64,000 nucleotides of DNA from Escherichia coli. Its GTDB lineage: Bacteria; Pseudomonadota; Gammaproteobacteria; Enterobacterales; Enterobacteriaceae. Below are positions 4,684-13,179 of this stretch, piece by piece; position 1 is the stretch's first letter, and each line of letters opens with the position of its first letter. The stretch lies in the NCBI RefSeq assembly GCF_009931435.1, contig NZ_CP043414.1; one strand, 5' to 3'. The translations under genes were made by a program, and so were the position numbers. The notes under the pieces were generated by a model. It had not been told where the DNA came from, ran no database searches, and saw only the letters and a program-made list of their open reading frames with translations.

Positions 4684-5538
4684 TTACACCAACGCCCCGT
4701 AAATCGTCAGTAGCGCAATTACCACCACGACCACGAACGAGGTTTTCTTCGCCATGGAAACCGCTGCCTTCGGCGTCTCCACCTTATCGACATGCGGTTC
4801 ACGCGCCAGAGAGAACTGTGCCAGACGTGTTAATACCTGATATTGCGAAGTATGGAAATCACCCAGCGAAGCAAACCAGGCCGGTAACGCTTTTTCCCCA
4901 TGACCGATCAAGGCATATACCACACCCGCAAGACGAACCGGCACCCAATCCAGTACATGAAGCACGGCATCAATGCCGGACTGTAAACGATGATGCGGCG
5001 TCTGGTAACGCGCCAGCCAGTATTGCCATGCACGCAAAAACGCATACCCCATCAGCGTAACGGGTCCCCAGGTTCCCCCCACAATCAGCCAGAACAACGG
5101 AGCAAGATAAAAACGAAAGTTAATCCACAGCAATGCATTTTGCAGCTCACGCAAATACTCACGTTCATCGCAGCCTGCTGGGACGCCGTGAATCATGGTG
5201 AGTTCGCCAGCCATCGTGGCACGGGCATGGCTATCATTACGTGAAGCAGCTGTCAGATAAGCATGATAATGAAGACGAACTTTACCTGCGCCAATACACA
5301 GCAAACCAATCAGCAGCCACACCAGCAGCGTGGGAACGTTGAACAATACTCCCTGCAATGCGCGTAACAGTAAAAAAGTCACGCCCATCGCAATAATGGT
5401 CATGCCTAATGTGCGCCCGAGAGAAAAATGTTTCACCCGCCGGAAGAACGCCTCAAGACGATGATCAAGCTGCCAGTGCTCGCCCAGCTTAAACAGGCGC
5501 TCGAAAATTAACACCAATAGGGTTGTAAACAGCGTCAT
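4684..5538 (-). CDS. ampE: AmpE inner membrane protein, 284 aa
   Basis: Track ORF 4684..5577 trimmed to [22 protein letters not shown]... (known AmpE N-terminus); start overlaps ampD stop by 4 nt. Confidence 0.93.
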
Positions 5539-6086
5539 GTTGTCTCCTTGCTGACCAGGGCGCGAAACCGTGCCCAATCAAAGGCGGGGCCGGGATCGGT
5601 TTTCCGATCCGGCGCAATATCACAATGGCCCGTCATGTTATTAGCGATATCTGGATAGCGATCAATCAGTGCCCGCGTAACCGCCGCAAGCTGTTGATAC
5701 TGCGCATCGGTATACGCCAGCGTATCGGTGCCTTCCAGCTCAATCCCAATAGAAAAATCATTGCAGCGTTCGCGCCCCTGATACTGAGAGACTCCGGCAT
5801 GCCAGGCACGTTTATCGAAAGGAACATACTGGACTATTTCACCATCGCGGCGAATCAAACAGTGAGCGGAGACGCGCAAATGGGCGATCTCAGCAAAGAA
5901 AGGATGTGCCTGCGGATCAATAGTTCCAGTGAATAATGCGTCGATCCACGGACCGCCAAACTCGCCTGGCGGCAGGCTAATATTGTGCACCACCAGCAGG
6001 GTGGGTGTTTCGTCATCCGGGCGGCAATCGTAATGTGGTGAGGGAACGCGGCGCGCGCCAACCAGCCACCCCTGTTCTAACAACAT
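5535..6086 (-). CDS. ampD: 1,6-anhydro-N-acetylmuramyl-L-alanine amidase, 183 aa
   Basis: Track ORF; [45 protein letters not shown]... matches AmpD. Confidence 0.95.
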
Positions 6087-6113
6087 GCAGGATCTCCTTA
6101 TATGTGGTGCTAA

Positions 6114-7067
<954 letters not shown>

Positions 7068-7269
7068 TTGCTGACAGATTTATCCGCTCCATCGCGGGCG
7101 GATAATCTCCCCTTTCCCAACTTTCTTCGTAACGCCTCGCAAATTTCTTGTCTTTCGCTGCAACGTAATAAAAAACTCCGGAAGCTGCTTTCCCGTTTCG
7201 TTTTTTGCCCCTCGCTTGTGCTGATGGCGTTTGCCAAAGTAGCGCCAACCAAATCAAGGAGCGAAACAA

Positions 7270-7710
7270 ATGGACAAGCAACGCGGTTTTACACTTATCG
7301 AACTGATGGTGGTTATTGGCATCATTGCCATTTTAAGCGCCATTGGTATTCCCGCTTATCAAAACTACCTGCGCAAAGCCGCACTCACCGACATGCTACA
7401 AACCTTTGTGCCTTACCGTACCGCCGTAGAGTTGTGCGCGCTGGAACATGGTGGATTAGATACCTGCGACGGTGGCAGCAATGGCATTCCCTCGCCTACC
7501 ACCACCCGCTATGTTTCAGCCATGAGTGTGGCAAAGGGCGTGGTGTCGCTGACCGGGCAAGAAAGTCTCAATGGGCTAAGCGTCGTTATGACACCGGGTT
7601 GGGATAACGCAAACGGCGTCACCGGCTGGACGCGCAACTGCAATATTCAAAGTGACAGCGCATTGCAGCAAGCCTGCGAAGATGTCTTTCGCTTTGATGA
7701 CGCCAACTAA
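7270..7710 (+). CDS. ppdD: Type IV prepilin-like protein (prepilin peptidase-dependent protein D), 146 aa
   Basis: Track ORF; MDKQRGFTLIELMVVIGIIAILSAIGIPAYQNY... carries the class-III signal/N-methylation motif G-FTLIE. Confidence 0.95.
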   Translation: MDKQRGFTLIELMVVIGIIAILSAIGIPAYQNYLRKAALTDMLQTFVPYRTAVELCALEHGGLDTCDGGSNGIPSPTTTRYVSAMSVAKGVVSLTGQESLNGLSVVMTPGWDNANGVTGWTRNCNIQSDSALQQACEDVFRFDDAN

Positions 7711-7719
7711 GGAGCGGCA

Positions 7720-9117
7720 ATGAATATTCCACAGCTCACCGCCCTGTGTCTGCGTTATCAGGGAGTCTTGCTGGATGCCAGCGAAGAGGTGGTTCATGTT
7801 GCGGTGGTTGATGCCCCTTCGCATGAGCTACTGGACGCATTGCATTTCGCTACCACCAAACGTATTGAGATCACCTGCTGGACGCGCCAACAAATGGAAG
7901 GTCACGCCAGTCGCACCCAACAGACATTGCCCGTAGCTATTCATGAGAAGCATCAGCCCAAAGCAGAGTTGCTGACTCGAACGTTACAATCTGCGCTGGA
8001 ACAACGCGCGTCTGATATTCATATCGAACCAGCGGACAATGCCTACCGCATCCGCTTGCGTATCGACGGTGTATTGCATCCTTTACCGGATGTTTTACCG
8101 GATGTTTTACCGGATGCCGGAGTCGCATTAACCGCCAGATTAAAAGTGCTGGGCAACCTGGATATTGCGGAACATCGCCTGCCGCAGGACGGGCAATTCA
8201 CTGTCGAACTGGCAGGAAACGCCGTCTCATTTCGTATTGCGACCTTACCATGCCAGGGTGGTGAAAAGGTGGTATTAAGGTTGTTACAGCAGGTGAGCCA
8301 GGCACTGGATATCAACACGCTGGGGATGCAGCCGTTACAACTGGCGGACTTTGCTCATGCCTTGCAACAACCACAGGGACTGGTGCTGGTAACTGGCCCT
8401 ACAGGCAGCGGCAAAACGGTCACGCTTTATAGTGCCCTGCAAACGCTGAATACCGCTGACATTAATATTTGTAGCGTCGAAGATCCGGTTGAGATCCCCA
8501 TAGCCGGACTAAACCAGACGCAAATCCATCCGCGTGCCGGTCTTACCTTTCAGGGCGTTTTGCGTGCGTTATTGCGCCAGGACCCTGACGTCATCATGAT
8601 CGGAGAGATCCGCGATGGCGAAACAGCAGAGATCGCTATTAAAGCGGCGCAAACCGGTCACCTGGTGTTGTCTACCCTACACACCAATTCCACCACTGAA
8701 ACGCTGGTACGTTTACAGCAAATGGGAGTCGCCCGCTGGATGCTCTCATCGGCGCTTACGCTGGTAATAGCCCAGCGTCTGGTACGCAAACTTTGCCCGC
8801 ATTGTCGCCAGCAGCAAGGGGAGCCCATCCATATTCCAGACAATGTATGGCCGTCGCCGCTGCCCCGCTGGCAAGCACCCGGTTGTGTACATTGCTACCA
8901 CGGTTTTTATGGTCGCACGGCCTTATTTGAAGTTCTGCCCATAACACCGTTCATACGTCAGCTTATTTCCGCTAATACCGACGTTGAATCGCTGGAAACG
9001 CACGCCCGACAGGCGGGTATGCGAACGCTTTTTGAAAACGGCTGCCTGGCCGTGGAGCAAGGCTTAACCACCTTTGAAGAGTTAATCCGCGTATTGGGAA
9101 TGCCGTATGGCGAGTAA
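7720..9117 (+). CDS. hofB: Type IV pilus assembly ATPase (PilB/GspE family), 465 aa; contains in-frame 12-bp tandem duplication
   Basis: Track ORF; MNIPQLTALCLRYQGVLLDASEEVVHVAVVD..., Walker A GPTGSGKT present. 4 aa longer than the 461-aa K-12 HofB as I recall it. Confidence 0.93.
   Translation: MNIPQLTALCLRYQGVLLDASEEVVHVAVVDAPSHELLDALHFATTKRIEITCWTRQQMEGHASRTQQTLPVAIHEKHQPKAELLTRTLQSALEQRASDIHIEPADNAYRIRLRIDGVLHPLPDVLPDVLPDAGVALTARLKVLGNLDIAEHRLPQDGQFTVELAGNAVSFRIATLPCQGGEKVVLRLLQQVSQALDINTLGMQPLQLADFAHALQQPQGLVLVTGPTGSGKTVTLYSALQTLNTADINICSVEDPVEIPIAGLNQTQIHPRAGLTFQGVLRALLRQDPDVIMIGEIRDGETAEIAIKAAQTGHLVLSTLHTNSTTETLVRLQQMGVARWMLSSALTLVIAQRLVRKLCPHCRQQQGEPIHIPDNVWPSPLPRWQAPGCVHCYHGFYGRTALFEVLPITPFIRQLISANTDVESLETHARQAGMRTLFENGCLAVEQGLTTFEELIRVLGMPYGE
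8082..8116 (+). repeat. Tandem 12-bp repeat (CCGGATGTTTTA x2 plus partial third) inside hofB, encoding PDVL-PDVL-PDA
   Basis: Read directly: tttaCCGGATGTTTTACCGGATGTTTTACCGGATGCC; in frame with hofB. Confidence 0.9.
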
Positions 9118-10309
9118 GCAACTCTGGCGCTGGCGTGGCATAACCGGCGACGGCAATGCGCAAGATGGGATGCTATGGGCAGAGAGCCGTGCTTTGCTGC
9201 TCATAGCACTACAGCAACAGATGGTTACCCCACTTAGCCTGAAGCGAATCGCCATCAATTCTGCGCAGTGGCGAGGAGATAAAAGCGCGGAAGTCATTCA
9301 TCAACTGGCGACGCTACTCAAAGCCGGGTTAACGCTTTCTGAAGGGCTGGCACTGCTGGCGGAACAGCATCCCAGTAAGCAATGGCAAGCGTTGCTGCAA
9401 TCGCTGGCGCACGATCTCGAACAGGGCATTGCTTTTTCCAATGCCTTATTACCCTGGTCAGAGGTATTTCCGCCGCTCTATCAGGCAATGATCCGCACGG
9501 GGGAATTGACTGGTAAGTTAGATGAATGTTGCTTTGAACTTGCTCGACAGCAAAAAGCCCAACGTCAGTTAGCCGATAAAGTGAAATCAGCGTTGCGTTA
9601 TCCCATCATCATTTTAGCGATGGCAATCATGGTGGTTGTGGCAATGCTGCATTTTGTACTGCCGGAGTTTGCTGCTATCTACAAGACCTTTAACACCCCA
9701 TTACCGGCGCTAACGCAGGGGATCATGACGCTGGCAGACTTTAGTGGCGAATGGGGCTGGCTGCTGCTGTTGTTCGGCTTACTGCTGGCAATAGCCAATA
9801 AGTTGCTGGTGCGCCGCCCGACCTGGCTCATCGTGAGGCAAAAATCACTGTTACGCATCCCAATTATGGGTTCACTGATGCGAGGGCAAAAACTCACGCA
9901 GATCTTTACGATTCTGGCGCTGACACAAAGTGCAGGCATTACTTTTTTACAGGGCGTAGAGAGCGTCAGAGCAACAATGCGCTGTCAGTACTGGGAGCAA
10001 CTTCTGACACAAATCCAGCACGATATCAGTAACGGTCATCCTATCTGGCTGGCGCTAAAAAATGCCGGTGAGTTTAGCCCGCTCTGTTTGCAATTAGTGA
10101 GAACAGGAGAGGCATCCGGTTCGCTGGATCTCATGTTAGACAACCTCGCCCGTCATCATCGGGATAACACCATGGCGCTGGCGGATAACCTTGCAGCCTT
10201 GCTCGAACCGGTGTTGCTGGTCATAACGGGAGGAATTATCGGTACGCTAGTGGTGGCAATGTATTTGCCAATTTTCCATTTAGGCGATGCGATGAGTGGG
10301 ATGGGATAA
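9107..10309 (+). CDS. hofC: Type IV pilus inner-membrane platform protein (PilC/GspF family), 400 aa
   Basis: Track ORF; MASKQLWRWRGITGDGNAQDGMLWAESRALL...; overlaps hofB 3' end by 11 nt. Confidence 0.94.
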   Translation: MASKQLWRWRGITGDGNAQDGMLWAESRALLLIALQQQMVTPLSLKRIAINSAQWRGDKSAEVIHQLATLLKAGLTLSEGLALLAEQHPSKQWQALLQSLAHDLEQGIAFSNALLPWSEVFPPLYQAMIRTGELTGKLDECCFELARQQKAQRQLADKVKSALRYPIIILAMAIMVVVAMLHFVLPEFAAIYKTFNTPLPALTQGIMTLADFSGEWGWLLLLFGLLLAIANKLLVRRPTWLIVRQKSLLRIPIMGSLMRGQKLTQIFTILALTQSAGITFLQGVESVRATMRCQYWEQLLTQIQHDISNGHPIWLALKNAGEFSPLCLQLVRTGEASGSLDLMLDNLARHHRDNTMALADNLAALLEPVLLVITGGIIGTLVVAMYLPIFHLGDAMSGMG

Positions 10310-10310
10310 C

Positions 10311-10334
10311 GCTGGCGTGTTACTCCACGCCAGC
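10311..10334. terminator. Hairpin between convergent hofC and guaC
   Basis: GCTGGCGTG-ttactc-CACGCCAGC perfect 9-bp stem immediately after the hofC stop. Confidence 0.55.
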
Positions 10335-10343
10335 ATTGGGAGA

Positions 10344-11387
10344 TTACAGATTGTTGAAGATGCGGTTTTCTTGTTCCTGTACACGGATAAATGTGGTGCG
10401 CTTGGTCAGCTCTTTCAGGCGTGCAGCCCCAACGTATGTACAAGCTGAACGCAGGCCGCCCAAAATATCACGCGCGGTATTTTCAACCGGGCCTCGCAGC
10501 GGCAGCTTAACGGTTTTACCTTCTGCTGCGCGATATTCCGCAACGCCGCCAACGTGACGTTTCATCGCAGACTCGGAGCTCATGCCGTAGAACAGCATAA
10601 ATTTCTCGCCGTTCTCCTCAACGATGCGACCACCGCTCTCTTCGTGGCCCGCCAGCATGCCGCCAAGCATGACGAAATCGGCACCGCCGCCAAAGGCTTT
10701 CGCGACATCGCCCGGCGTGGTGCAGCCACCGTCGCTGACGATCATTCCGCCCAGACCATGCGCAGCATCGGCACATTCGATCACCGCAGAAAGTTGCGGA
10801 TAACCGACGCCTGTTTTGACGCGAGTTGTACAAACAGAACCTGGGCCAATGCCAACTTTAACGATATCAGCACCGGAGAGGATAAGCTCCTCACACATTT
10901 CACCTGTCACGACGTTGCCAGCACAAATGGTTTTGGTCGGCCACGCTTCACGCGCTTTCGCAACGAACTGCACGAAGTGTTCGGAATAACCATTCGCCAC
11001 GTCAATACAAACGAAGTTTAATGCCGGGTTCAGGTCGAGAATCTGTTTAGTTTTTTCGAAGTCCGCATCAGACGTACCGGTAGAAACCATCACATGTTTC
11101 AGCACATCAGCGGAAGAATTGTTGATAAACGCTTGCCACTCTTCGACAGAATAGTGTTTATGCACAGCAGTCAGAATATCAAAAGAAGCCAGCGCAGAGG
11201 CCATAGAAAATGTGCCTACGGTGTCCATATTTGCGGCGATAATCGGCACGCCGGACCAGCTCTGACCTGAATGTTTGAAGGTGAATTGACGTTCCAGTTC
11301 AACATCGGAACGGCTTTTAAGAGTGGAGCGTTTAGGGCGGATGAGAACGTCTTTAAAACCTAACTTCAGATCTTCTTCAATACGCAT
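10344..11387 (-). CDS. guaC: GMP reductase, 347 aa
   Basis: Track ORF; [60 protein letters not shown]... matches GuaC. Confidence 0.96.
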
Positions 11388-11611
11388 GTGCGGATTCCTG
11401 GGGTTAATGGCTATAAGGGTAAGAGCGCAACTCCAGTGACGCTATCATACGCACTAATCAATGCGGCGCAAGACTGCGAAATTGTCTTTTTTTACGCTAC
11501 AATCCCATAAATTTACCTGGTAAATAGTGAGCGAACGTTTCATCAATTTCGCTTTCGTGCGCTCATTTTTAACGTTTTGATAATCATGATGAATTCCCGG
11601 GAATATAAATT

Positions 11612-12232
11612 ATGAGGTATATAGTTGCCTTAACGGGAGGCATTGGCAGTGGCAAGAGTACCGTTGCCAATGCGTTTGCTGATCTCGGAATTAACGTCAT
11701 TGATGCCGATATTATTGCGCGTCAGGTGGTTGAACCAGGTGCACCTGCGCTACATGCAATTGCTGATCACTTTGGCGCTAACATGATTGCTGCTGATGGA
11801 ACATTGCAGCGCCGGGCCTTGCGCGAGCGGATTTTCGCCAACCCGGAAGAGAAAAACTGGCTTAACGCCCTGCTGCATCCGCTGATTCAGCAAGAGACGC
11901 AACACCAGATCCAGCAAGCATCTTCCCCCTATGTACTTTGGGTTGTGCCATTGCTGGTAGAAAACTCATTGTATAAAAAAGCGAATCGAGTGCTGGTGGT
12001 GGATGTCAGCCCAGAAACGCAACTTAAACGCACCATGCAGCGCGATGATGTCACTCGCGAGCATGTTGAACAAATTCTTGCTGCTCAGGCAACGCGCGAA
12101 GCCCGCCTTGCCGTGGCAGATGACGTCATTGATAATAACGGCGCACCGGATGCTATCGCATCGGATGTTGCCCGCCTGCACGCACACTATTTGCAGCTTG
12201 CGTCGCAGTTTGTCTCACAGGAAAAACCGTAA
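11612..12232 (+). CDS. coaE: Dephospho-CoA kinase, 206 aa
   Basis: Track ORF; [40 protein letters not shown]... (P-loop). Confidence 0.96.
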
Positions 12233-12975
12233 TGCAGACCCAGGTCCTTTTTGAACATCCACTAAATGAAAAAATGCGTACATGGCTGCGCATTGAGTTT
12301 TTGATTCAGCAACTCACCGTTAATCTACCCGTCGTTGACTACGCTGGCGCTCTGCATTTCTTCCGCAATGTCAGTGAATTACTGGATGTTTTCGAGCGCG
12401 GCGAAGTCCGTACTGAGCTGTTGAAAGAACTTGACCGCCAGCAGCGCAAACTCCAGACCTGGATTGGCGTGCCTGGCGTGGACCAGAGCCGTATTGAAGC
12501 ATTAATTCAGCAGTTAAAAGCGGCGGGGAGCGTATTAATTTCCGCGCCGCGTATCGGGCAATTTCTGCGTGAAGATCGTTTGATTGCTCTGGTGCGTCAG
12601 CGACTGAGCATCCCAGGCGGCTGTTGTAGCTTTGATTTACCTACATTGCACATTTGGCTGCATCTACCCCAGGCGCAGCGCGACAGCCAGGTAGAAACCT
12701 GGATTGCCAGTCTGAACCCGCTCACCCAGGCACTTACCATGGTGCTGGATTTAATTCGCCAGTCGGCCCCCTTCCGTAAACAAACCAGCCTGAATGGTTT
12801 TTATCAGGATAACGGTGGCGATGCCGACTTGCTGCGCCTGAATCTGTCGCTCGATTCACAGCTTTATCCGCAAATTTCCGGTCATAAGAGCCGTTTTGCC
12901 ATTCGTTTTATGCCGCTGGACAGTGAAAACGGACAGGTACCGGAACGTCTGGATTTCGAACTGGCCTGTTGCTAA
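12232..12975 (+). CDS. zapD: Cell division factor ZapD (FtsZ-associated), 247 aa
   Basis: Track ORF; [30 protein letters not shown]...; start overlaps coaE stop (TAATG). Confidence 0.95.
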
Positions 12976-12984
12976 GGAGTAAAA

Positions 12985-13179
12985 ATGTCAGAAACTATTA
13001 CGGTGAATTGCCCAACCTGCGGGAAAACGGTGGTGTGGGGTGAAATCAGCCCGTTTCGGCCATTTTGTTCCAAACGTTGTCAGCTGATCGACCTAGGAGA
13101 ATGGGCTGCTGAAGAAAAACGAATCCCCAGCAGTGGCGATCTTTCCGAAAGCGATGACTGGAGCGAAGAGCAGAAGTAA
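12985..13179 (+). CDS. yacG: DNA gyrase inhibitor YacG (zinc finger), 64 aa
   Basis: Track ORF; [44 protein letters not shown]... with CxxC...CxxC motif. Confidence 0.93.

Follow-up and report, generated by a model that had tools for sequence, protein, structure and literature searches.

The genes examined here form the chromosomal ppdD-hofB-hofC operon of Escherichia coli, one of several scattered clusters that jointly encode the enterobacterial type IVa pilus (probability about 0.95), which in EHEC is named HCP (PMC2920817). The operon is already known, having been described as a type IVa pilus and DNA-uptake operon under Sxy/CRP-S control. Its copy in the window (the whole 64-kb stretch of DNA that was analysed) is ordinary and intact apart from a rare four-residue in-frame insertion in HofB. 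As a core E. coli operon already studied by genetics, structure determination and reconstitution (the gene set for reconstitution of the PpdD pilus is given in 10.1101/856302), it is of little importance beyond its correct annotation.

Gene content and identity

The operon comprises three genes:

ppdD (hcpA), nt 7270-7710, plus strand: type IVa major prepilin of 146 aa, ATG to TAA (equivalog NF007862)
hofB, nt 7720-9117, plus strand: PilB/GspE-type pilus extension ATPase of 465 aa (461 aa in K-12), ATG to TAA (equivalog NF007755)
hofC, nt 9107-10309, plus strand: PilC/GspF-type inner-membrane platform protein of 400 aa, ATG to TAA (equivalog NF007861)

An earlier note on this DNA had described three full-length frames with conserved motifs, and this was borne out, all three running uninterrupted on the plus strand with zero internal stops. 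The gene names it gave were also upheld, as each protein exceeds the curated cut-off of its own NCBIfam equivalog: 269.3 bits against 138 for PpdD (E = 7.6e-81), 812.2 against 617 for HofB (E = 1.2e-244) and 654 against 401 for HofC (E = 8.4e-197). Judged from these E-values, the matches are far beyond chance. Pfam domains were N_methyl/Pilin in PpdD, T2SSE in HofB (PF00437, 5.7e-145) and two stretches of T2SSF in HofC (PF00482, 2.2e-56). The hofB gene starts 9 nt after ppdD, behind the Shine-Dalgarno sequence AAGGAG, and hofC overlaps hofB by 11 nt, through which it is predicted to be translationally coupled to hofB; together the genes would make up a single, tightly packed transcription unit. 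The GC content across the locus (0.49-0.56) equals that of the flanks, and the GC profile carries no island signature. An Rfam scan of nt 5000-13000 at E-values up to 1 returned zero RNA families, and a repeat search of nt 6900-10700 gave only short chance matches besides a 12-bp array within hofB. A link to defence systems was dropped, as PADLOC reported just one negligible P-loop match (E = 9.5e-4).

The PpdD leader, MDKQRG/FTLIE, contains the expected GFTLIE motif and is short, Gly-terminated and of class III, with Glu at mature position 5. Its N-terminus matches PF07963 (2.5e-10) and TIGR02532 (4e-09). The protein is 100% identical to that of K-12, and its residues 7-146 are identical at 139 of 140 positions to the EHEC pilin of PDB 6gv9. 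Cysteines 56, 66, 124 and 136, together with E11 and H60, correspond to C50, C60, C118, C130, E5 and H54 of the mature pilin. The enterobacterial T4aP signature, defined by the disulfides C50-C60 and C118-C130 and by H54 (10.1101/2021.04.14.439816), is complete in PpdD, with four cysteines for the two disulfides.

HofB scores below the cut-offs of both the PilB equivalog (483, cut-off 676) and the GspE equivalog (453, cut-off 630). It aligns with the PilB structures 6olj and 5tsg at E-values of about 1e-104, and HofC aligns with PilC 3jc8 at 4.6e-45. The motifs of the family are all present in HofB, including Walker A (GPTGSGKT, residues 226-233), the Asp box (EDPVE, 254), Walker B (DVIMIGEIRD), the His box (GHLVLSTLHTN, 313) and the tetracysteine zinc motif (CPHC at 359 and CVHC at 389), and the invariant columns of the ATPase family are retained. 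The AF2 model of HofB has a mean pLDDT of 92.9.

Promoter region and regulation

Upstream of ppdD, two putative promoter elements were located:

Candidate CRP-S-like site, nt 7123-7144, plus strand: 22-mer TTCTTCGTAACGCCTCGCAAAT, with the core TTCGT-N6-TCGCA at nt 7126-7141
Weak -10-like hexamers CGTAAT and TAAAAA, nt 7164-7174, plus strand: about 30-35 bp downstream of the centre of the CRP-S-like site

CRP-S was defined as a 22-bp CRP site with C6 and G17 and the core TGCGA-N6-TCGCA. The candidate matches 8 of the 10 core positions, including the diagnostic C6 and G17, and is the single site in the nadC-ppdD spacer that reaches at least 7 of 10. It lies within nt 7056-7186, the homologue of a K-12 fragment that is band-shifted by CRP (mapped via the primers of PMC1635313), and was unchanged in 12 of 12 sequences compared. 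From these matches we infer that nt 7126-7141 may be where Sxy and CRP act to activate the ppdD promoter. The -10-like hexamers would lie at class II spacing from it, and the transcription start is likewise putative. A sigma-70 consensus scan of nt 6900-10700 found no promoter, against 3.5 expected from shuffles, which fits an activator-dependent and normally silent promoter. The promoter probably needs cAMP-CRP and Sxy (TfoX) at the candidate site, and this need would account for the lack of expression in ordinary culture.

The earlier note had also held that the genes are cryptic in the laboratory yet linked to pilus production and DNA uptake, in agreement with published work (PMC1635313, PMC3330819, PMC2920817). 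The pilus genes are silent under standard culture (PMC1635313, PMC3330819). For ppdD of K-12, CRP binding was demonstrated by EMSA, and Sxy with CRP induces the gene about 90-fold in a manner dependent on crp and cAMP (PMC1635313). Induction of sxy leads to processed PpdD, Sxy-induced DNA uptake needs hofQ, and PpdD was made by 0 of 72 ECOR strains (PMC3330819), while EHEC builds HCP pili from the PpdD pilin (PMC2920817). Besides DNA uptake, published work also gives the system a part in adhesion.

The hairpin between hofC and guaC

The right end of the operon faces guaC across a short spacer:

GC-rich hairpin, nt 10311-10334, no strand assigned: 9-bp stem and 6-nt loop in the hofC sense, within the 34 bp that separate the stop codons of the convergent genes hofC and guaC
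guaC, nt 10344-11387, minus strand: convergent with hofC

According to the earlier note, this hairpin closes the operon. The structure is present at exactly nt 10311-10334, but the terminator role finds only partial support: no U-tract follows the stem on either strand (tails ATTGGGAGATTACAG on plus and GTTATCCCATCCCAC on minus), the hairpin was not among the 6 terminator-like matches returned by a scan of nt 6900-10700 (a number in line with the 4.8 in shuffles), and its natural polymorphisms preserve pairing only in the guaC sense. The evidence tips slightly towards a hairpin that belongs mainly to the 3' end of the guaC mRNA (as a terminator or exonuclease barrier), in which case any effect on read-through from hofC would be incidental and the hairpin would not be a dedicated terminator of ppdD-hofBC. 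The stem is longer and stronger in the guaC sense (12 pairs, -22.1 kcal/mol, z -6.5) than in the hofC sense (9 pairs, -18.1 kcal/mol, z -3.4). Both polymorphisms of the hairpin, a G to A change at nt 10335 in the present sequence and a G to A change in the 3' arm in L007-L009, are G.U wobbles in the guaC sense and C.A mismatches in the hofC sense. Across the three natural variants the folding energy holds at -22 to -24 in the former (-23.9, -22.0 and -22.1) but falls from -23 to -18 in the latter (-23.2, -17.8 and -18.1). Against this, the polymorphisms are only two, among 12 sequences, and the guaC sense also lacks a U-tract, so that the hairpin is no canonical intrinsic terminator on that strand. 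A hairpin of -18 kcal/mol is still strong enough to stall hofC transcripts or to stabilise them, and the two roles are not mutually exclusive. The hairpin should not carry an operon-terminator annotation without 3'-end data.

A four-residue insertion in HofB

The 465-aa length of HofB, which the earlier note passed over, differs from the 461 aa of K-12 because a short tandem repeat has expanded to a third copy:

12-bp tandem repeat, nt 8082-8116, plus strand: 2.9 perfect copies of TTTACCGGATGT, encoding PDVLPDVLPDAG (TRF score 70, 100% matches)

As a result of the third copy, HofB gains LPDV at residues 122-125. K-12-like alleles carry an imperfect two-copy repeat (PDVSPDAG), and a perfect two-copy repeat was found in 94 genomes. 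None of the 5426 complete E. coli genomes carries the three-copy allele; the closest of them belongs to a different clone, its hofB and nadC diverging by 0.5-0.9%. L003 and L004 do have the three-copy allele, each differing from the window at 2 of 9398 nt, and an identical 465-aa HofB is encoded on at least 24 contigs of independent samples in the NCBI and ENA assemblies. The allele is real, since near-identical independent assemblies share it, and the occurrence on these contigs rules out an artefact of sequencing or assembly. The insertion is a recent replication-slippage event in the N2-domain loop of the clone represented here.

The segment G117-R140, from the DG motif to the RxK motif, counts 18 residues in nearly all of the diverse family representatives (88 of 92) but 22 here, the longest seen, so that HofB departs from the canonical 18-residue strand-to-helix loop of the N2 domain. 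Loop length is a conserved property and no formal defining feature of the family, and the deviation is compatible with family membership. In the AF2 model, LPDV falls in the loop joining strand 118-121 to helix 131-144, where the pLDDT is about 72.

It is conceivable, though unlikely, that LPDV weakens or abolishes the extension ATPase and that the operon is a very young functional pseudogene that has as yet acquired no stops. A nearly length-invariant loop has been lengthened, and an intact ORF is therefore no guarantee of an active HofB ATPase. The allele, being limited to a single clone and absent from the complete genomes, would moreover have arisen too recently to have come under selection, and selection would be weak where hofB is seldom expressed (PMC3330819). 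However, the insertion keeps the frame and lies in coil, the flanking strand and helix are still modelled at pLDDT of at least 90, and all of the catalytic motifs are unaffected. The loop residues at this site are weakly conserved across the family, and the allele persists in independent samples. An effect on motor function is an improbable proposition: the slippage-born, lineage-specific LPDV could alter the motion of the N2 domain relative to the ATPase core, in which case piliation or DNA uptake in the clone would not be as in other E. coli. In a wider sense, the PDVL tract could be a site prone to slippage by which the pilus motor is tuned or switched. The case also calls for caution in annotation, as calling the operon intact at the level of ORFs misses a rare insertion in its motor ATPase.

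Conservation and selection

Of 5426 complete E. coli genomes, 5423 contain the locus at a coverage of at least 80%, always in the nadC-guaC interval, and ppdD-hofB-hofC is part of the core genome. Relative to K-12, hofB has a dN/dS of 0.127 and hofC one of 0.110, and in a sample of 10 genomes piN/piS was 0.11-0.15 with zero stops. The locus is under purifying selection. This signature largely refutes the view of the operon as an evolutionary relic, unused, cryptic and drifting toward loss. Such a view could draw on the blank sigma-70-like promoter scan and the absence of expression in standard culture (PMC1635313, PMC3330819), on the raised diversity of hofB and hofC (piS 0.08-0.11, compared with roughly 0.05 in nadC and guaC) and their piN/piS, which exceeds the values of guaC and nadC, and on occasional disruption, as in STEC2018-553, where IS1 cuts hofC. 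It is nevertheless very improbable given the near-universal retention of the locus, a dN/dS of about 0.11-0.13 that is well under 1, a PpdD protein identical to that of K-12, an invariant candidate CRP-S site, and induction and function that have been demonstrated experimentally (PMC1635313, PMC3330819, PMC2920817).

Partner genes and pilus assembly

That the three genes specify type II secretion components and not a pilus system has next to no chance of being correct: PGAP names HofB 'type II secretion system protein GspE', and the GspE and GspF models also match HofB and HofC, but they do so below their cut-offs (452.6 against 630 for GspE, TIGR02533; 263 against 424 for GspF) while both proteins exceed those of their own equivalogs, the first gene of the operon encodes the pilin of a solved type IV pilus (6gv9), and the T2SS of K-12 is a distinct cluster, gspC-O. 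The PGAP label for HofB is thus misleading.

In the pilus system, PpdD is the major pilin, which would be cleaved after G6 and methylated at F7 by GspO or PppA, both encoded elsewhere. HofC provides the inner-membrane platform, and HofB the hexameric ATPase that powers insertion of pilin into the growing fibre. [quoted passage not shown] The ORF map of the 64-kb window (aroP to past the dcw and leu region) shows no peptidase, secretin or minor-pilin genes, and specifically no hofMNOPQ, ppdA-ppdB-ygdB-ppdC or sxy. Among the 5426 complete genomes, hofMNOPQ was found in 5425, gspO in 3145 (58%) and pppA in 3618 (67%). Prepilin peptidases are accessory at the population level, and function across strains is most likely to be limited at the peptidase step rather than by ppdD-hofBC.

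Comparison with known systems

The closest counterpart is the operon of K-12 (b0108-b0106), which shares the position between nadC and guaC, gene order, orientation, 9-nt gap and 11-nt overlap. PpdD and the CRP-S-like site are identical in the two, while HofB differs by 13 substitutions and LPDV, and HofC by 18 substitutions. DNA divergence from K-12 amounts to 3.5% for hofB and 5.3% for hofC, the flanks differing by about 2%. In the hairpin, there is a single loop change, and the tenth pair is lost in the hofC sense. The haemorrhagic coli pilus of EHEC O157:H7 (HcpA/PpdD; 6gv9, 6gms) has a mature pilin matching at 139 of 140 residues and shares both disulfides, E5 and H54; the difference is at mature residue 115, which is A in the EHEC structure and T here and in K-12.

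Looking more widely, PilA-PilB-PilC of type IVa pili (Pseudomonas, Myxococcus, Geobacter) and Haemophilus pilABCD represent an equivalent trio of pilin, extension ATPase and platform. HofB aligns with PilB in every motif (E about 1e-104) and HofC with PilC (4.6e-45), although the N-terminus of HofB is about 100 residues shorter than that of the matched PilB chains (465 aa versus 566-588 aa). Control by CRP-S sites and Sxy is similar in H. influenzae (PMC1635313). Unlike Haemophilus pilABCD, the E. coli operon lacks a pilD peptidase gene, and GspO or PppA would be borrowed from T2SS clusters. A further difference from these systems is that PpdD is unusually conserved and not hypervariable.

Gene Layout and Protein Identity

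The ppdD-hofB-hofC genes were described in the earlier note as full-length reading frames with conserved motifs, and this is borne out by six-frame ORF calls and by the sequence itself, which match its coordinates exactly and show no internal stop in any of the three frames:

ppdD, 7270–7710, + strand, major pilin, 146 aa
hofB, 7720–9117, + strand, extension ATPase, 465 aa
hofC, 9107–10309, + strand, platform protein, 400 aa
guaC, 10344–11387, − strand, convergent with hofC and 34 bp away

The ppdD-hofB gap is 9 nt, with the Shine-Dalgarno sequence of hofB (AAGGAG) overlapping the ppdD stop codon, and the last 11 nt of hofB also belong to hofC. Both cited motifs, the PpdD leader (MDKQRG/FTLIE) and the HofB Walker A box (GPTGSGKT, residues 226–233), are present, and HofB also retains the Asp box (EDPVE), Walker B (DVIMIGEIRD), His box (GHLVLSTLHTN) and zinc motif (CPHC...CVHC) of its family.

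Pfam domains were found in PpdD (N_methyl and Pilin), HofB (T2SSE, 5.7e-145) and HofC (T2SSF, two stretches), and all three proteins exceed the cut-offs of their NCBIfam equivalogs (PpdD, 269 bits vs 138; HofB, 812 vs 617; HofC, 654 vs 401). Since the generic PilB, GspE and GspF models score under their own cut-offs for HofB and HofC, the RefSeq product name of HofB, GspE, is loose naming and not evidence of a secretion system. PpdD is 100% identical to that of K-12, and its mature form agrees at 139 of 140 positions with the EHEC type IV pilus subunit solved by cryo-EM/NMR (6gv9). It also has E5, H54 and both disulfides that are described as defining features of the enterobacterial T4a subclass (10.1101/2021.04.14.439816). 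HofB matches solved PilB ATPases (E about 1e-104), and HofC aligns with PilC (4.6e-45). The top-scoring distant relatives of HofB in a representative search (P0031–P0046) are about 980–1050 aa long with two or three T2SSE-matching stretches apiece, and look like fusions or tandem duplications of PilB-like ATPases.

Distribution and Selection

The 3.3-kb locus is part of the core genome and is not an island: 5423 of 5426 complete E. coli genomes have it at ≥80% coverage, its neighbours are nadC and guaC every time (in K-12, in eight sampled genomes and in the closest relative), and its GC content is that of its flanks. Values of dN/dS against K-12 are 0.127 (hofB) and 0.110 (hofC), and in a 10-genome sample piN/piS is 0.11–0.15 and all copies are full length. 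Disruption is rare, the one sampled example being a STEC genome (STEC2018-553, NZ_CP075665.1, 3601–7400 of the retrieved locus), in which an IS1A element truncates hofC after 921 nt and is followed, where guaC is expected, by the Mu-like prophage genes mom, com, DUF826 and DUF1378. Because the locus is core, its copies full length and its disruption rare, 'intact' is the norm for this operon, and such a call carries little information.

Synonymous diversity in the 10-genome sample is 0.025 for ppdD, 0.082 for hofB and 0.110 for hofC, with nadC at 0.047 and guaC at 0.053, so that the pilin gene is the most conserved of the operon and the platform-protein gene the least. Most type IV pilus loci show the reverse order. 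The central and 3′ part of hofC (9400–10300) differs by 6–10.7% from its K-12 equivalent and from those of seven further sampled E. coli, whereas the flanks differ by ~2% and the other genomes are only 2–4% apart among themselves there; a hofC at least 99% identical to the window copy occurs in only 5 of 5424 genomes. The segment appears either to have been imported by recombination long ago or to represent a rare allele class, with purifying selection continuing. A second short patch (5500–5800, − strand, ampE 3′ end/ampD 5′ end) is 3.7–4.7% diverged from all sampled genomes bar the closest relative, with adjoining 300-bp bins at 0.3–2%. The yacG-mutT spacer is ~116 bp longer in two retrieved loci (L006 and L008, about 7680–7890), where mutT ends at 7892 vs about 7776 in other sampled genomes, possibly by a REP-type insertion.

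A Three-Copy Repeat in hofB

HofB is 465 aa long in the window vs 461 in K-12. Tandem Repeats Finder reported 2.9 perfect copies of TTTACCGGATGT at 8082–8116, and three allele forms were seen:

Form 1, K-12-like, imperfect two-copy repeat, encoding PDVSPDAG
Form 2, 94 complete genomes (the closest relatives among them), perfect two-copy repeat, encoding PDVLPDAG
Form 3, the window, three copies, encoding PDVLPDVLPDAG

Replication slippage on the perfect repeat would produce the third form. A strict search found it in none of 5426 complete genomes. An artefact is ruled out, as the identical 465-aa protein is encoded on at least 24 contigs elsewhere; two that were retrieved (an NCBI assembly and an ENA metagenome) each differ from the window at 2 of 9398 nt. 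The three-copy form is a young, clone-specific allele.

Across 92 family representatives sharing 39–54% identity with HofB, the invariant DG and RxK motifs are set 18 residues apart in 88, 19 in two and 14 in one; a distance of 22 occurs only in the window HofB. In an AlphaFold2 model (mean pLDDT 92.9, pTM 0.83) the repeat forms a coil between strand 118–121 and helix 131–144, with a local pLDDT of about 72 and confident flanking elements. From this placement and the alignment, the insertion is a loop extension that leaves all catalytic motifs intact, but in a segment whose length is almost never altered in evolution. Functional impairment of HofB by the insertion is considered unlikely.

Partner Genes

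The figures for partner genes outside the window are species-wide counts, obtained with K-12 queries. The hofMNOPQ genes are universal (5425 of 5426 complete genomes) and the two candidate prepilin peptidase genes accessory (gspO 3145, pppA 3618 of 5426), so the peptidase is the component to look for in the source genome. The gspO and pppA genes were each counted separately, and some strains may have the whole pilus gene set and no cognate peptidase.

Regulation and the hofC-guaC Hairpin

A scan of 6900–10700 returned no sigma-70-like promoter, vs 3.5 expected from shuffles. The 202-bp nadC-ppdD spacer contains a single CRP-S-like (Sxy-dependent CRP) site:

CRP-S-like site, 7126–7141, TTCGT-N6-TCGCA

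Its agreement with the CRP-S core is 8 of 10 positions, the diagnostic C6 and G17 among them, and it falls within 7056–7186, the homologue of the K-12 fragment band-shifted with CRP by Cameron and Redfield (PMC1635313). The site is unchanged in all 12 compared sequences, although 9 of the 202 positions of the spacer are changed relative to K-12. Weak −10-like hexamers, whose placement relative to the site we infer, lie 30–35 bp downstream, at a class II spacing. Just past the nadC stop codon, and ahead of the ppdD promoter region, there is a stem-loop (7076–7108, −16 kcal/mol, z −2.7) with a C/T-rich tail after it; this is probably the 3′ hairpin of nadC.

The earlier description of the genes as cryptic in K-12 in the laboratory and linked to pilus production and DNA uptake in some strains agrees with the literature. 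In LB ppdD is not detectable, Sxy induces it about 90-fold, and its dependence on CRP and cAMP is strict (PMC1635313). Without sxy induction PpdD was seen in 0 of 72 ECOR strains, and induction gave processed PpdD and hofQ-dependent DNA uptake (PMC3330819), a qualification being that this direct evidence for uptake concerns hofQ and not ppdD-hofBC. HCP pili of EHEC are built from PpdD in Minca medium (PMC2920817), and ppdD is reported to be dispensable for spontaneous plasmid transformation, a different route (PMC3306417).

The hairpin said to close the operon against guaC is present and stable:

Hairpin, 10311–10334, between convergent hofC and guaC, folding energy calculated on both strands

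It folds at −18.1 kcal/mol (z −3.4) in the hofC sense and, more stably, at −22.1 (z −6.5) in the guaC sense. Its role in closing the operon is unproven: neither strand has a U-run after the stem, it is not among the hits of the terminator scan, and its natural variants stay paired in the guaC sense only. Three variants occur among 12 sequences (window 10310–10335; the same site in retrieved loci L001 and L005–L011), with energies of −23.2, −17.8 and −18.1 in the hofC sense and −23.9, −22.0 and −22.1 in the guaC sense. Both substitutions give C.A mismatches in hofC-sense RNA and G.U wobbles in guaC-sense RNA; two substitutions among 12 sequences are suggestive, but not proof, of a hairpin kept up for the guaC transcript by selection on its 3′ end.

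Relationship to Known Systems

The ppdD-hofB-hofC operon is already known and nothing new in kind. It is the same operon as K-12 b0108-b0106, and its other name in EHEC is the hcp locus. In E. coli it corresponds to the pilA-pilB-pilC modules and to the competence pilus operon of Haemophilus, although, unlike these, it has no peptidase gene of its own.
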